Positions 5,195 to 41,252 of a stretch of DNA of 45,558 nt are shown one piece after another. The stretch spans positions 1 through 45,558 of the forward strand of contig JBCCFK010000001.1 of assembly GCA_039029775.1 (NCBI GenBank), given 5' to 3'. Every line of letters begins with the position of its first letter. The stretch's first letter is position 1. The notes under the pieces are model-generated. The model was not told the DNA's origin. It did no database searches and saw only the letters and a list, made by a program, of their open reading frames with translations. The translations under genes were made by a program, and so were the position numbers. Source of the DNA: Actinomycetota bacterium (GTDB lineage: Bacteria > Actinomycetota > Acidimicrobiia > Acidimicrobiales > UBA8592).

Positions 5195-5794
5195 GTGGTC
5201 GTCAGAGTCATCGTCGTCCAACACGCTGAGAAGGAGCGCACAGCCGGCGATCCGGCGCTGACGCCTCGCGGTCACGAGCAGGCGATCGCCGTCGCGGATT
5301 GGGTGGGGGCGACGCATCCCGATGCGCTCGGCGTGTGGTCCAGTCCGCTCGCCCGCACACGCCAGACCGCAGACCCGATCGCTGCCGCGCTGGGTCTACC
5401 TGTTCACATCGACGATCGGCTCGTGGAGCGCATGAACTGGTCCGACGACCGGTCCCAGACGTTGGACGAGTTCTTGGCCGACTGGCGACACGCTTCCGCC
5501 GACCGGGACCACCAGCCGCTCCAAGGCGAATCGTCGCTCCAGGCCGGTGCTCGATTCGTCGACGCCCTTCGCGCGATTGCCGAGCAGGTCGTCGATGGTG
5601 TGGCGGTCGTGGTCTCCCATGGTGGTGTCACCGTGGACGCCCTCCGAACGCTCGTCGGCGACGCGGCTGTTGATGCCGCCGGTCCGACGCTCGTGACCGA
5701 CGGCGTGCCGAACGGTGCCGTGACGATCCTCTCCGTCGAGCTCGGTCAGGTCGACGTCGTCTCCTACCCGGACACCCACCACCTCGAGCGGTGA
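5195..5794 (+). CDS. Histidine phosphatase (phosphoglycerate mutase-like) family protein
   Basis: ORF 5195..5794 with a GTG start. VIVVQHAEKERTAGDPALTPRGHEQA...VVVSHGGV matches the RHG-like N-terminal and C-terminal His motifs of the family (QHAE here instead of RHGE). Confidence 0.75.
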   Translation: MVVRVIVVQHAEKERTAGDPALTPRGHEQAIAVADWVGATHPDALGVWSSPLARTRQTADPIAAALGLPVHIDDRLVERMNWSDDRSQTLDEFLADWRHASADRDHQPLQGESSLQAGARFVDALRAIAEQVVDGVAVVVSHGGVTVDALRTLVGDAAVDAAGPTLVTDGVPNGAVTILSVELGQVDVVSYPDTHHLER

Positions 5795-33142: not shown

Positions 33143-34536
33143 GGATCACCCAGGTCAAGAGCCTGCGCGACGCCGAGGCCTTCGAGGCTCACGTCGAGTC
33201 GCTCGGCGTGGATCTCCCGTGGCACGACGACCCGGCGTCGGTCCTGTCCCGTCGCGTCGTGGTGCGGGACGGGACGGCCGGGGAGCTGTCCGCGTCGAAC
33301 CGGTTGGCGATCCTCCCGATGGAGGGATGGGACGGGACCGCCGACGGTCGCCCGACCGACCTCGTGCAGCGGCGATGGGCCCGGTTCGGAGCCAGCGGTG
33401 CCGGGCTGGTCTGGGGGGAGGCCACCGCGCTCGTCCCCGAGGGCCGCGCGAACCCGAACCAGCTGGTGCTCAGCGACGAGACGGTCGAGGACATCGCGGC
33501 CCTTCGAGCACTCCTGGCGGACGATCAGGTTGCTGGCCTGCAGCTCACCCACTCCGGTCGGTACGCCCGACCCGCCGATCGGGCGCCCAGGACCGCCTAC
33601 GTGCACCCGGCCCTCGACGAGCCCTCCGGCGCGACCGAGGCGTCGGTGCTGTCCGACGACGAGCTCGACGAGCTCGTCGTCGCGTTCGTGGACGCCGCGG
33701 TGCTGGCACGCGACGCCGGGTTCGACTTCGTCGACGTCAAGGCCTGCCACGGCTACCTCGGGCACGAGTTGTTGAGCGCGTACGACCGGACGGGCCGATA
33801 CGGCGGCGACTTCGCCGGCCGCACCCGGTTCATGCGCAGCGTGATCGAAGGCATCCGAAGCCGGGCGCCGGACCTCGCCATCGGTGCCCGGATCTCGATC
33901 TTCGACATGGCTCCGTTCCGCCCGGGCGCCGGCGGCGTCGGCGAGACCACCGCCGACGGCGAGTACCGGTACGCGTTCGGCGGCGACGGCACAGGGGTCG
34001 GGATCGACCTCGCAGAGCCGTCGGCGCTGCTGTCGATGCTCGAGGACCTGGGGGTCGGCCTGGTGAGCGCCACGGCGGGGAGCCCGTACTACGTCCCGCA
34101 TGTCCAGCGCCCCGCCTACTTCCCGCCGTCGGACGGCTATCGGCCTCCCGAGGATCCGCTGGTCGGCGTCGCCCGGCTGCTCGCCGCCACCGCGGAGCTC
34201 GCCCGTCGCCATCCCGCCATCGTGGTCGTCGGCTCCGGCTACTCCTACCTGCAGCAGTGGCTGGCGCCGGTGGCCGCGGGGGCGGTCGCGGAGGGGGGAG
34301 CCTCGATGATCGGGCTCGGTCGGATGGCGCTGTCGTATCCCGACATGCCCAACGACGTCCTGGCGGAGGGAGCGCTGCAGACCAGGCTGATCTGTCGGAC
34401 CTTCAGCGACTGTACGACGGCGCCCCGCGCCGGACTGGTCTCGGGGTGCTTCCCACTCGACCCCTTCTACAAGGAGCACGAGCATCGCGTGGCGTTGGCG
34501 GCGGCCAAGAAGGCCAGCCGTTCACGCCTCGGGTGA
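33139..34536 (+). CDS. Old Yellow Enzyme-type NADH:flavin oxidoreductase
   Basis: Part of ORF 32914..34536 from the GTG at 33139, which forms a GTGA overlap with the upstream stop: ...NRLAILPMEGW...GLVWGEATALVPEGRAN...QLTHSGRY...FDFVDVKACHGYLGHELLS...RTGRYGGDFAGRTRF...IGARIS. Confidence 0.88.
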   Translation: MRITQVKSLRDAEAFEAHVESLGVDLPWHDDPASVLSRRVVVRDGTAGELSASNRLAILPMEGWDGTADGRPTDLVQRRWARFGASGAGLVWGEATALVPEGRANPNQLVLSDETVEDIAALRALLADDQVAGLQLTHSGRYARPADRAPRTAYVHPALDEPSGATEASVLSDDELDELVVAFVDAAVLARDAGFDFVDVKACHGYLGHELLSAYDRTGRYGGDFAGRTRFMRSVIEGIRSRAPDLAIGARISIFDMAPFRPGAGGVGETTADGEYRYAFGGDGTGVGIDLAEPSALLSMLEDLGVGLVSATAGSPYYVPHVQRPAYFPPSDGYRPPEDPLVGVARLLAATAELARRHPAIVVVGSGYSYLQQWLAPVAAGAVAEGGASMIGLGRMALSYPDMPNDVLAEGALQTRLICRTFSDCTTAPRAGLVSGCFPLDPFYKEHEHRVALAAAKKASRSRLG

Positions 34537-37988: not shown

Positions 37989-38816
37989 ATGACCACTGCG
38001 CCCGAGACCGATACCGACCCCGTGCTCTCGTCGTCACCGGAGCCCGGCATCACCCTCCTCACCCTCAACCGGCCCGATCAGCTCAACGCCATGACGTACG
38101 AGTTGGTCGAGCGCCTCCACGAGCGGCTCGACGAGGTCGATCGGGACCACGGGTGCCGAGCGGTCGTTCTCACCGGTGCCGGCCGCGGGTTCTGTGCCGG
38201 CCTCGACCTCAACGGTTTCGGGGTGGTTCCCGGCAACGAGGAGTTCGGCCGGCCACAGGCCGGGATGGCGACCCAACAGATCATCGCCGACCTCGTGCCA
38301 CGGATGCGCGACGTCCGGCAGCCGATCATCGCCGCGGTGAACGGTGCCGCCGCAGGCGGTGGGTTCGCGCTCACGCTCGCGAGCGACGTCAGGGTCGCGT
38401 CGACGTCGGCCAAGTTCGCGACGGCGTTCGTTCGGCTCGGCCTCTCGGGGTGCGACATCGGCGTGTCCTGGATGCTCCCTCGCCTGATCGGCTCGGGTCG
38501 GGCGTGGGAGCTCCTGCTGACGGGCCGCGTCTTCGACGCCGCGGAGGCCGATGACCTGGGTCTGCTGACGCGGGTCGTCGAACCCGACGACCTGCTGGAC
38601 ACGGCACTGCACTTCGCGGGGCTGATCGCCGGCAACTCGCCGTTCGGGGTCTGGATGACCAAGGAGGTCATGTGGTCGAACCTCGAGATCCCGTCGCTGC
38701 GCGCCGGCATCGACCTCGAGAACCGGACCCAGATCATGGCCAGCGGCACCGAAGACAGTCGTGCCGCGATGGGCGGCTTCCTGCGCGGCGAGACCCCCGA
38801 CTGGCAGAACCGCTGA
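37989..38816 (+). CDS. Enoyl-CoA hydratase/isomerase (crotonase) family protein
   Basis: Part of ORF 37653..38816 from the ATG at 37989: ...ITLLTLNRPDQLNAM...VVLTGAGRGFCAGLDL...PIIAAVNGAAAGGGFALTLASDVRV. Confidence 0.9.
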   Translation: MTTAPETDTDPVLSSSPEPGITLLTLNRPDQLNAMTYELVERLHERLDEVDRDHGCRAVVLTGAGRGFCAGLDLNGFGVVPGNEEFGRPQAGMATQQIIADLVPRMRDVRQPIIAAVNGAAAGGGFALTLASDVRVASTSAKFATAFVRLGLSGCDIGVSWMLPRLIGSGRAWELLLTGRVFDAAEADDLGLLTRVVEPDDLLDTALHFAGLIAGNSPFGVWMTKEVMWSNLEIPSLRAGIDLENRTQIMASGTEDSRAAMGGFLRGETPDWQNR

Positions 38817-38819
38817 GGG

Positions 38820-39338
38820 TCACCTGCTCAGCAGCTCGACACACCGCTCGGCGGCCGTGGCGGCGCGCTCGTTCAACACATCGGTGGTCGCCGAGCTGAT
38901 CGGGTGCGGGATCACCACGAACGGGTAGTCCTCGGCGCCGAGCGTGCGAGCCATCAGCTCGGCCGCGCTGACGAAGGCCTCGGTCATGATGCCGACCGAC
39001 GGCAGGCCGAGGCGCTCACCCGAGACGGCGTCGTGCAGACTGCACGACGAGCAGCTGCCTCAATCGCCGACACCCGCCACCAGGGCGTTCCACCTCTTGG
39101 CCCGGTCGAGGATGTCGTCGCCGGCGGGGGCGCTGTAGTTGGGCTTGGTGACCCGCTCGACCTCGGCGACACCTCGAGCGCGCAGCTCGGTCTCCAGCGC
39201 ATCGAAGAACGGGCGGGTGCCCTGCTTGCCGTTGGAGATGATGCCGACCGTGATGCCCGAGAGGTCCGGCAGGCGGTCGGCCAGCTTTGTGACCTCGGCT
39301 TCCTCTTCGTGGGTGGGGTTCAGGACCTCGAGGCTCAT
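38820..39338 (-). CDS. Candidate selenoprotein of the UGSC type (172 aa, with the in-frame TGA at 39060-39062 read as Sec)
   Basis: The ORF track stops ORF 39060..39338 at a TGA. My translation of the same frame continues for 79 codons (GSCSSCSLHDAVSGERLGLPSVGIMTEAFVSAAELMARTLGAEDYPFVVIPHPISSATTDVLNERAATAAERCVELLSR) to the TGA at 38820-38822, and 74 of the 79 codons end in G/C. The context is VAGVGD-U-GSCSSC. No independent start or RBS exists for the downstream part. A hairpin follows the TGA. The ATG at 39338 lies 1 nt after the upstream stop. Confidence 0.7.
39029..39049 (-). promoter_or_regulatory. Candidate bacterial SECIS hairpin
   Basis: On the mRNA strand: UGA + 10 nt + CGUCGUGC-AGUCU-GCACGACG. 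This is an 8-bp perfect stem with a 5-nt apical loop that has G at loop position 2. The loop starts 18 nt after the UGA, within the range reported for bacterial SECIS elements. Confidence 0.5.
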
Positions 39339-39339
39339 C

Positions 39340-40398
39340 TCAGGGCACCTCGCAGTCCACGCAGGCGCCGATGCCGACGGTGACGGCCCGGCTCTTGTGG
39401 CCCAGCCACGGGGGGATCACCATGCCGAAGCCGCCCGCCGGACCGCCGGCTGCGATCACCAGGACGTGATCGGGGTCCGGGAGCGCCGCGTACTCCCGGT
39501 CGCCCTTGTCCTGGACCACTGCGCCCTTGCCGACGTCGGCCCACTCGCGGCGGCGGATCCGGGCATTGTCGAACACGTACCGGCGGATGTCCGCCTTGGA
39601 CCAGCCGGCGGCCACGAAGTGGGTCCGCAGCTGCGGCGGGATCACGAGTGCGTAGTTGCCCGGCCAGATCGAGTAGTGGCGCATGTTGGCCTTGATCTCC
39701 GCGCAGTACGTGTCGAGGATCTGCTCGGGGTCGGTGGTCCACTCGTTCATGATCTGGCGGGGCGACATCGCGGCCATCACCGTCACCGCCGACACGTGGG
39801 GATCGCCGAGTCGTTCGCCGGCGAGGGACGGCCATGGCGAGTTGTCCTCGTCCTCGACGATGCAGAAGCTGACCTTGCCCGGGTGCCCGAACGTCGAGCG
39901 ATCGATGTCGCCTGGACGGACGTCCATGAGGTTGATGAGGACCAGGCGGACCGCCCGCCCGACGGCCGTGCTCGCCCGGTCGCTCGGTCCGACGGCGTTG
40001 AAGGTGCCGTCCATCCCGAGCTCGTTGCGGATCGGGCCGTTCACCACGACGAGGACAGCCGACCCGCCGGTGCTGGCGGTGGCGCCGTGGCACAGGAATG
40101 GTTCCTGCAGCATCGCCGTCACCGCGGTGACCACGACCGGGAAGTGCTGGGGCAGGCATCCGGCCATCACCGCGTTGATCGCCACCTTCTCGGCGGTGAT
40201 GCGTCGGGGTCGGACCGGCTCGATGCCCACCAGGTGATCCGCGGTCAGACCGGCCCAGTCGAGGCACGCCTGCACCGCCTCAGCGGTTGGTGGCACGACC
40301 GGCAGTCCATCGGTCCAGCCTCGGTTGTGGAACAGCTCCTGGGCCGCGTGGATGTCGTCGACCGCGATCGACTCCGAGCCGAGCGTCACGTTGATCAC
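39340..40398 (-). CDS. Conserved hypothetical protein (352 aa), partner of the candidate selenoprotein
   Basis: C-terminal part of ORF 39340..41154 from the GTG at 40398, which forms a GTGA overlap with the LLM stop: VINVTLGSESIAVDDIHAAQELFHNRGWTDGLPVVPPT...MAGCLPQHFP...FLCHGATASTGG...GIGACVDCEVP. It has strong GC3 and is soluble. I cannot assign a family by eye. Confidence 0.75.
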   Translation of the reverse strand: MINVTLGSESIAVDDIHAAQELFHNRGWTDGLPVVPPTAEAVQACLDWAGLTADHLVGIEPVRPRRITAEKVAINAVMAGCLPQHFPVVVTAVTAMLQEPFLCHGATASTGGSAVLVVVNGPIRNELGMDGTFNAVGPSDRASTAVGRAVRLVLINLMDVRPGDIDRSTFGHPGKVSFCIVEDEDNSPWPSLAGERLGDPHVSAVTVMAAMSPRQIMNEWTTDPEQILDTYCAEIKANMRHYSIWPGNYALVIPPQLRTHFVAAGWSKADIRRYVFDNARIRRREWADVGKGAVVQDKGDREYAALPDPDHVLVIAAGGPAGGFGMVIPPWLGHKSRAVTVGIGACVDCEVP

Positions 40399-41252
40399 GC
40401 CATCCCGGTGGTCTTGCGGAGGGCGTCGATCCGGCCGTCGAGGCTCTCGAGGCTGCCGGCGAACAGCGGCAGGATCAGTTGAGCCACGCCGGCGGCGGCG
40501 TAGGCCTCGACCATGTCCCGGTCGACACCCGACCGGTTGGGGCTGATGTAGACGTCGATCTCGTCCCGGCTGCGACCGGCGGCCTCCAGGTGGGTGTCGA
40601 GGCGCAGGAGATGGCTCTCGACCTCGTCGGGGCCCACGCCGTAGCCGTACCAGCCCGTGGCGAAGGTGGCGACGCGGCGGAGGGCCGGCTCGCTCTCGCC
40701 GCCGACGAACACCGGCACGGGTGATTGCACCGGCTTGGGGTTGAACTGCGCGTTGCGGATGGAGACGGTCTGACCCTCGAACGTCACCGGATCGGGTCCC
40801 CAGAGGGCTTTCATCGCCGCCATGTACTCCGTCGTGTCCCTCGCCCGGCGCTTGAAGTCCATGCCCAGGGCGTCGAACTCCTCCTCGAGCCATCCGATGC
40901 CGATACCGAAGTCGACCCGTCCGTTCGAGAGGTAGTCCAGGTCGGCGACCATCTTGGCGGTGTACACGGGTTGGCGCTGTGGCACGAGGCAGATGCCGGT
41001 GCCGAGCCGGAGCCTCGTCGTGTTCGCGGCGACGAAGGTGAGTGCGGTGAACGGATCCAGCACACCGTCGGGGTCCCCCGGCACCTTCCCGTCCTTCGAG
41101 TAGGGATACGACGACTCGTACTCGGGGAAGAACAGCACGTGTTCGGGAACCCACACCGTCGCGAACCCCGCGGCCTCGATGCGCTGGGCCGCCCCGACGA
41201 TGTAGTCGATGGGCGTGTGGTGGCTGAATGCGGTCGTGATCCCGATGTCCAT
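40395..41252 (-). CDS. LLM-class (luciferase-like) probable F420-dependent oxidoreductase
   Basis: ORF 40395..41252: MDIGITTAFSHHTPIDY...GFATVWVPEHVLF...RLRLGTGICLVPQRQPVYTAKMVADLDYLSNGRVDFGIGIGW...VPVFVGGES. Confidence 0.88.
   Translation of the reverse strand: MDIGITTAFSHHTPIDYIVGAAQRIEAAGFATVWVPEHVLFFPEYESSYPYSKDGKVPGDPDGVLDPFTALTFVAANTTRLRLGTGICLVPQRQPVYTAKMVADLDYLSNGRVDFGIGIGWLEEEFDALGMDFKRRARDTTEYMAAMKALWGPDPVTFEGQTVSIRNAQFNPKPVQSPVPVFVGGESEPALRRVATFATGWYGYGVGPDEVESHLLRLDTHLEAAGRSRDEIDVYISPNRSGVDRDMVEAYAAAGVAQLILPLFAGSLESLDGRIDALRKTTGMA

Follow-up and report, generated by a model that had tools for sequence, protein, structure and literature searches.

The UGSC-containing protein is a predicted selenoprotein family and was among the most abundant ones in the Global Ocean Sampling (GOS) metagenomes, in which 255 selenocysteine (Sec) forms were counted versus 21 cysteine (Cys) forms, with an enrichment in non-marine aquatic samples (PMC2398784). 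A thioredoxin (Trx)-like fold was suggested for the family by Zhang & Gladyshev (PLoS Genet 2008; PMC2398784). A survey of more than 5200 sequenced organisms published in 2016 lists the UGSC family with the figures 26 and 33 (PMC5029168), and a review of 2026 lists it with the NCBIfam model NF041046 (PMC13188914). The family is already known since 2005-2008. The present analysis concerns a member at 38820-39338 on the minus strand of contig JBCCFK010000001.1 (assembly GCA_039029775.1), from an Actinomycetota bacterium of the order Acidimicrobiales; positions 1 to 45,558 of this contig, the whole stretch of DNA that was analysed, are referred to as the window. Comparative evidence indicates, with a probability of roughly 0.93, that 38820-39338 is one gene and that its codon 93, a UGA, is decoded as Sec. 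Recognition of the Sec codon restores a complete 18-kDa protein from a gene that callers of open reading frames (ORFs) split in two, and the gene would imply Sec use by an Acidimicrobiales-like organism. The features on which this reading is based are as follows.

38820-39338, minus strand: predicted UGSC-family selenoprotein gene (translation; full-length PF24696 match; NF041046 match)

39060-39062, minus strand: in-frame UGA, predicted Sec, residue 93, motif GVGD-U-GSC-SSC (TGA or Cys in the same column of homologues)

38820-38822, minus strand: true stop of the selenoprotein gene (position kept in relatives; the convergent gene ends at 38816)

39029-39049, minus strand: putative bacterial Sec insertion sequence (SECIS)-type hairpin, codons +4 to +11 after the UGA (minimum free energy, pairing, synonymous entropy and the constraints on bacterial SECIS elements)

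The 92-aa ORF at 39060-39338 (minus strand) starts with the ATG at 39338 and ends with the TGA at 39062-39060, which stands between the residues VAGVGD and GSCSSCSLHD. Past this TGA the reading frame remains open for 79 sense codons and is closed by the TGA at 38822-38820. The read-through product would comprise 172 sense codons (92 + Sec + 79) followed by the stop, with a predicted mass of ~18 kDa, and the predicted peptide that spans the UGA is ALVAGVGD-U-GSCSSCSLHDAVSGER. Codons ending in G or C account for 74 of the 79 after the TGA, compared with 83 of the 92 before it. An earlier note on this DNA had described the 92-aa ORF, the TGA at 39060-39062, the extension of 79 codons and the 74 codons ending in G or C, all of which were recovered at the same positions; the residues VAGVGD-U-GSCSSCS, which it had called a redox-looking context, are those read in the translation. 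Its statement that the downstream piece has no start codon with a ribosome-binding site (RBS) of its own holds in part: an in-frame ATG does exist at 38987 (minus strand) and opens a 55-aa ORF, and the lack of an RBS before this ATG is the remark of that reader. The 25 codons that separate the TGA from the ATG at 38987 (GSCSSCSLHDAVSGERLGLPSVGI) are the best-conserved part of the UGSC protein.

Scanning 185,579 species, each represented by a single genome, yielded 561 relatives, the best 80 of which were taken for the comparison of loci. These 80 loci are from metagenome-assembled genomes (MAGs) of Acidimicrobiales, other Actinomycetota, Alpha- and Betaproteobacteria, with a few under other labels. 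A TGA is aligned to the TGA of the window in 80 of 80 loci and is followed by GSCSS in every one of them; the pattern used admitted a stop, C, W, R, S or U in this column, so that the TGA was not imposed on the result. The consensus GSCSSCSLHD is intact in 78 of the 80 loci, with single substitutions in L004 and L049, and about 79-94 codons are conserved past the motif. The same column holds TGA also in the loci L081-L084 and L088. Distant homologues with 29-37% identity (P0028 and P0149-P0153) carry Cys in the Sec column, in the form GVGD-C-G[SAG]C. TGA in close homologues and Cys in distant ones is the classical criterion of a Sec/Cys pair. The search with the read-through protein that the earlier note had proposed gave alignments that span the UGA and hold either Sec (TGA) or Cys in the column.

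At the protein level, 28 homologues were obtained from a collection of 5.8 billion proteins. Twenty-five of them are 94-127 aa long and terminate exactly at ..G[VI]GD, which is the signature of gene callers halting at a Sec codon. The remaining three continue past the column: P0028 with Cys, P0001 with a called W although its DNA reads TGA, and one with AGA. The codon tally in the Sec column of the 28 homologues is accordingly 26 TGA, 1 AGA and 1 Cys. The AGA (Arg) is found at L089:235-237, on a contig of 506 bp that retains the full hairpin sequence, and reflects a sequencing error or else a mutation of very recent date. In three close relatives (L081:2365-2883, L082:7134-7652 and L083:2906-3424) the UGSC gene appears in public gene calls as two ORFs, of 92 aa plus 55 or 68 aa; both ORF fragments match the Pfam family PF24696 (UGSC), and the callers start the second piece at the internal ATG. 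The splitting of UGSC genes in metagenome resources is a systematic mis-annotation. With Cys replacing the stop, the window protein matches PF24696 over profile positions 1-171 of 172 (E 7e-49, 166.7 bits, cutoff 25) and NF041046 with E 4e-35 and 121 bits (curated cutoff 125). The family name 'UGSC family (seleno)protein', which the earlier note had given, is exactly that of NF041046, and PF24696 points to the same family. The window gene is a member of the described UGSC family, as was found in every family test that was run.

The window is syntenic with, and ~85-86% identical in DNA to, L001 (a contig of an Acidimicrobiales MAG) and the metagenome contigs L081 and L082. The comparison of the window with L001 covered 78 post-UGA codons, in which 24 differences are synonymous and 5 non-synonymous (dN/dS 0.05). 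For five close relatives the post-UGA differences at first, second and third codon positions range from 4/1/25 to 3/0/18, and 1-4 amino acids are changed in the 79 post-UGA residues. The stop after codon 79 (TGA or TAG) is in place in four of the five, and the contig of the fifth ends earlier. The region past the UGA is conserved at the protein level in the 80 loci and under purifying selection between the window and the five relatives, which settles in the affirmative a point on which the earlier note had made its reading depend. Judged from the sequences, this selection is the best indirect evidence that Sec decoding works in the lineage.

The hairpin at 39029-39049 consists of a perfect stem of 8 bp (CGUCGUGC/GCACGACG) with the loop AGUCU, begins 10 nt past the UGA and has a minimum free energy of -13.3 kcal/mol. 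It can alternatively be read with a 3-nt loop, if the A-U pair closes, which gives a stem of 8-9 bp. The consensus for bacterial SECIS elements (bSECISearch model) comprises four constraints: the apical loop measures 3-9 nt and the upper stem 4-16 bp; one of the first two loop positions is a G, mostly within the pattern N1-G-[G/U]-N-N2, in which N1 pairs with N2; 16-37 nt separate the UGA from the loop; and the minimum free energy is at most -7.5 kcal/mol (PMC13188914). The hairpin falls within all four constraints, with a loop of 5 nt, a stem of 8 bp, G at loop position 2, a spacing of 18 nt and -13.3 kcal/mol, and its loop A-G-U-C-U fits the N1-G-U-N-N2 pattern; no sequence similarity to the SECIS of E. 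coli fdhF or fdnG is implied. The description of the hairpin in the earlier note (8 bp, 5-nt loop AGUCU, 10 nt after the UGA, 39029-39049, SECIS geometry) was accurate throughout.

In an ungapped alignment of 81 sequences the hairpin is retained in 81 of 81, thus in all orthologues that carry TGA, which answers the question of conservation raised in that note. Standard pairs fill 96.8% of the pair cells and four of the eight stem pairs are invariant. Variation in the inner stem, the terminal pair aside, is almost only from G-C to G-U, in two pairs, with His CAC/CAT and Asp GAC/GAT opposite G. Synonymous sites give a stronger signal. Codons +4 to +7 (Ser-Ser-Cys-Ser) read TCG-TCG-TGC-AGT in 76, 81, 80 and 81 of the 81 sequences, with a codon entropy of 0.43, 0, 0 and 0 bit, compared with 1.0-1.8 bits in most other invariant Ala, Gly, Pro, Ser and Leu columns. 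The fixed AGT for Ser (81 of 81) stands out because ~90% of the codons in window genes end in G or C. Three Cys-type genes served as a small control: L085 (TCG TCC TGC ACG) and L087 (TCG TTG GGG ACG) have lost the hairpin, and L086 keeps most of it. Of the 990 TGA triplets in the window, only 7 precede a hairpin that has SECIS geometry and 8 or more perfect bp. Candidates at 34534 (plus strand) and at 5792 (plus strand)/5848 (minus strand), with G+C-rich hairpins of 9-11 bp and SECIS-like spacing, were rejected as ordinary stops with terminator-like hairpins; they belong to genes for an OYE-type flavin oxidoreductase and a histidine phosphatase, and the frame closes beyond them.

Several observations weigh against the Sec reading. 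The NF041046 score lies 4 bits short of the curated cutoff, which is the stricter, equivalog one. Compensatory covariation in the hairpin is essentially absent among the 81 sequences and shuffle controls were not exceeded, a test that is uninformative for a stem with hardly any variation. Shuffled versions of the 71-nt context fold just as well (z = -0.19, in DNA of 69% G+C), so that the weight lies on conservation and not on thermodynamics. No Rfam SECIS match was obtained in the whole window at gathering thresholds or in 38950-39120 at E <= 10, an expected outcome given the poor coverage of bacterial SECIS elements in that database. ARAGORN detected no tRNA gene at all in the 45.6-kb window, and no tRNA-Sec within 10 kb of UGSC in the 60 loci L001-L060. 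A Pfam scan found no SelA, SelB or SelD among the ~45 ORFs of the window, and a motif scan of 1.28 Mb (L001-L089) found no credible SelD or SelA motif. The cited papers on the family report no experimental demonstration of selenium in any member. On the other side, selA, selB, selC and selD are present in all 84 complete Actinomarina genomes (bioRxiv 10.64898/2026.04.03.716425). Actinomarina belongs to the same class, Acidimicrobiia, and to the sister order Actinomarinales relative to the window organism, which makes the Sec trait plausible, not proven, for the latter.

The same body of data bears on the other explanations of the in-frame TGA. The earlier note had named as its alternative a pseudogene, in which a Cys codon (TGC or TGT) became TGA, the protein is cut at 92 residues and the downstream frame decays. 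TGA is indeed one base from TGC, homologues with Cys exist and the Sec machinery was not seen in the window, but decay is contradicted by TGA in the same column of 80 of 80 loci from several phyla and of five close relatives, by the dN/dS of 0.05 and the excess of third-position changes over 79 downstream codons, by a stop kept in the four close relatives that reach it with no frameshifts or stops downstream, and by the presence of a dedicated, conserved hairpin. The third-position bias, the low dN/dS and the stop in place exclude a pseudogene for practical purposes, and this alternative was rejected. Nor is it credible that the protein is naturally split into two separate small genes (92 aa + 55 aa), as gene callers annotate it. 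The in-frame ATG at 38987 and the two ORFs publicly called in relatives would agree with such a pair, but the most conserved stretch, GSCSSCSLHDAVSGERLGLPSVGI, with the signature motif of the family, would then be non-coding, the chain of Cys-type homologues continues unbroken through this point, and no RBS was seen by the earlier reader ahead of the ATG. Since the 25 codons from UGA to ATG are the most conserved, an independent pair of small genes is excluded to the same degree.

A relic Sec gene, intact in appearance and yielding only the 92-aa product in a lineage that recently lost the machinery, is improbable to a somewhat lesser degree. It would explain why the machinery is visible neither in the window nor in the linked DNA of relatives, and among bacteria the Sec trait has a patchy distribution (PMC5029168). 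Against it stand the purifying selection on the post-UGA codons, seen when the window is compared with five relatives at ~85% DNA identity, the intact SECIS and the fact that Acidimicrobiia, the class of the window organism, include organisms with a documented Sec machinery (bioRxiv 10.64898/2026.04.03.716425). A genome-wide reassignment of TGA to Trp or Gly (code 4 or 25) would account for the W at this codon in the public call P0001, but TGA ends the two upstream genes of the apparent operon described below, UGSC itself and other genes of the window, homologues carry Cys in the column and not Trp or Gly, and a SECIS-type hairpin is present specifically at this TGA; such a reassignment has practically no probability here. 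Sec at codon 93 of a single gene is the reading retained in what follows, and the hairpin at 39029-39049 would direct the decoding of the UGA at 39062-39060 as Sec. The hairpin would do so by recruiting SelB-GTP-Sec-tRNA(Sec) to the ribosome, a step that is taken from the standard bacterial mechanism, as none of the machinery genes lies in the window.

Three genes follow each other closely on the minus strand, UGSC being the last; the other two encode an LLM-class oxidoreductase and a 352-aa protein, referred to as the partner. The features next to the UGSC gene are as follows.

39340-40398, minus strand: partner gene, 352 aa, unnamed conserved family, C-terminal GACVDC (CxxC) tail (sequence, synteny, fusions)

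39348-39351, minus strand: GAGG, Shine-Dalgarno-like by sequence and with a putative function as such, 9 nt from the UGSC ATG, inside the 3' end of the partner gene

40395-41252, minus strand: F420-dependent LLM-class oxidoreductase, first gene of the apparent three-gene operon (TIGR03619, 252 bits, cutoff 167)

37989-38816, plus strand: convergent enoyl-CoA hydratase, which ends 3 nt beyond the UGSC stop

The GTG start of the partner gene overlaps the stop of the LLM gene (GTGA), and its TGA ends 1 nt before the UGSC ATG; with this layout UGSC is translationally coupled to the upstream partner. In 79 of the 80 loci a partner gene precedes UGSC by no more than ~100 nt, with 67-95% identity, and is better conserved than UGSC. 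The sole exception is L069:5747-10000, from a MAG of the sponge-associated Ca. Poriferisodalis, in which the partner (61% identity) is not adjacent and a gene for a 1080-aa repeat protein and another ORF are inserted between the two. Cys-type UGSC genes also have a partner homologue directly upstream (28-35% identity, E down to 1e-59), without the CxxC tail. The partner has at least 7950 relatives in a 90%-identity collection, the named ones all being 'hypothetical', and its family comprises 5208 clusters at 50% identity (E <= 1e-3). It belongs to no Pfam or NCBIfam family, and a Pfam search at E <= 5 over 40 homologues returned scattered single matches only. The invariant cysteines of the partner include C81, C179 and the flexible C-terminal tail C346-x-x-C349.

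UGSC sequence is contained in 24 of the 150 best representatives of the partner family, and fusions occur in both orders. In P0178, P0295, P0192 and P0250, among others, the partner is followed by the N-terminal half of UGSC and the protein ends exactly at ..GD, the fused ORF stopping at the Sec codon. In P0301, P0284, P0297 and P0223 a full Cys-type UGSC precedes the partner, and in P0214, P0227, P0189 and P0236 the post-Sec C-terminal half of UGSC does so. Fusions that end at, or start just past, the Sec TGA are further casualties of gene calling. They are probably the 'UGSC/Unknown_1 fusion' of PMC2398784. Nothing informative was seen in the genes around three of the fusion proteins. Apparent partner-UGSC fusions in eight loci with long open stretches upstream were rejected as high-G+C artefacts, the frame differing from that of the partner. 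P0159, P0161, P0168, P0176, P0198 and P0204, of ~710-740 aa, show two or three matches to the partner profile and are tandem duplications. The adjacency in 79 of 80 loci, the upstream position in Cys-type loci and the fusions in both orders make it probable that partner and UGSC are functionally paired and behave as one unit across phyla. This firm link of UGSC, a function orphan, to an abundant and equally uncharacterised family is the main gain of the present analysis.

Other neighbours are less constant. A homologue of the LLM gene is present in only 11 of the 80 loci, and because this association is variable the gene is placed outside the conserved core. In 24 of the 80 loci the next gene downstream of UGSC, on the same strand, encodes a family III CoA-transferase (e.g. 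L077:5785-7023, plus strand), and LLM oxidoreductases, enoyl-CoA hydratases, SDRs and aldehyde dehydrogenases occur sporadically near UGSC across the loci. Downstream of Cys-type UGSC genes a thioredoxin reductase (TrxR)-like flavoprotein of ~300 aa (Pyr_redox_2, CADC) is encoded, directly after UGSC in L085 (2758-3663, plus strand) and after an intervening TctC-family gene in L086 (2820-3773, plus strand). Neither the window nor the DNA within 10 kb of Sec-type genes yielded a counterpart of this gene. The window (1-45558) is a redox and catabolic neighbourhood with three or four oxidoreductases of the LLM/F420 type, four enoyl-CoA hydratases, a thiolase, an acyl-CoA dehydrogenase, TauD and 2OG-Fe(II) dioxygenases, an aromatic amino-acid hydroxylase and the cytochrome bd subunits I and II. 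Several TetR, AsnC and AraC regulators are also encoded, and no RNA family was detected in the window by Rfam at gathering thresholds.

The fold of UGSC was modelled on the Cys homologue P0028, which is 32% identical to the window protein. Its AlphaFold2 model (pLDDT 90.6) contains five consecutive beta-alpha units; Cys99 opens the helix 100-115, which places the Cys/Sec position at the N-terminus of helix 3, right after strand 3. Foldseek matches of this model in the PDB include TIR, lumazine synthase, CheY-like, LMW-PTP and PTS-IIB proteins (TM-score 0.38-0.48, probability 0.9-1.0). A thioredoxin fold was considered and rejected, as no thioredoxin-fold protein is among the top 50 PDB matches of the model, which shows the five beta-alpha units instead. 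The UGSC product is thus predicted to be a flavodoxin-like alpha/beta protein, and its Sec, in a U-x2-C-x2-C motif at a helix N-terminus, would stand where redox-active or nucleophilic residues are typically placed. The AlphaFold2 model of the partner (pLDDT 82.8) gave weak PDB matches (TM-score ~0.25), to class I fumarate hydratase and the 'Toblerone-fold' cyclic amide hydrolases. Sequence searches of the PDB with the partner and UGSC profiles returned no relatives.

From these data UGSC may be the selenol/thiol redox subunit of a two-component oxidoreductase formed with the 352-aa partner, to which it is sometimes fused, and the substrate would possibly be of the carboxylic-acid or acyl-CoA type. 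The chances that UGSC serves as a redox carrier are about even. Slightly below that, and offered tentatively, stands the wider proposal that UGSC and its partner constitute a widespread Se-dependent two-subunit enzyme of an undescribed class with a flavodoxin-like Sec scaffold, in which a TrxR-like protein may be the electron source in Cys-type systems and the substrate may be a carboxylate or an acyl-CoA. It counts against this functional model that it is built on gene context and predicted structures with weak PDB matches (TM-score 0.25-0.48). Adjacency, coupling and fusions, together with the TrxR-like neighbour, provide a testable starting point for the reaction of UGSC.

Among the known systems, the window gene shares with the UGSC family the end-to-end profile match, the U-G-S-C motif, the predominance of Sec forms and the occurrence in aquatic or uncultured taxa. 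It departs from the description of 2008 in its flavodoxin-like model with five beta-alpha units, which is not a Trx-like fold. Five beta-alpha units are also what the model has in common with LMW-PTP/ArsC, PTS EIIB, CheY-like, TIR and lumazine synthase proteins, at modest TM-scores; the reactive residue of UGSC follows strand 3, whereas the nucleophile of LMW-PTP and EIIB follows strand 1, and there is no sequence similarity. In the glycine and D-proline reductases, GrdA is a carrier with a CxxU motif, and GrdB and PrdB are UxxC selenoproteins, reduced via thioredoxin reductase and thioredoxin. As in GrdA or thioredoxin systems, a small redox protein would serve a larger catalytic partner, an analogy of working principle only, and a gene for a TrxR-like flavoprotein recalls the glycine and D-proline reductase systems and is encoded next to Cys-type UGSC. 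No sequence or profile relationship to these reductases was found, and the partner matches neither GRDB, PrdA nor any other Pfam family. Organisms such as that of the window carry genes of aerobic type (cytochrome bd, many oxygenases), and membership in the glycine and D-proline reductases is not claimed.

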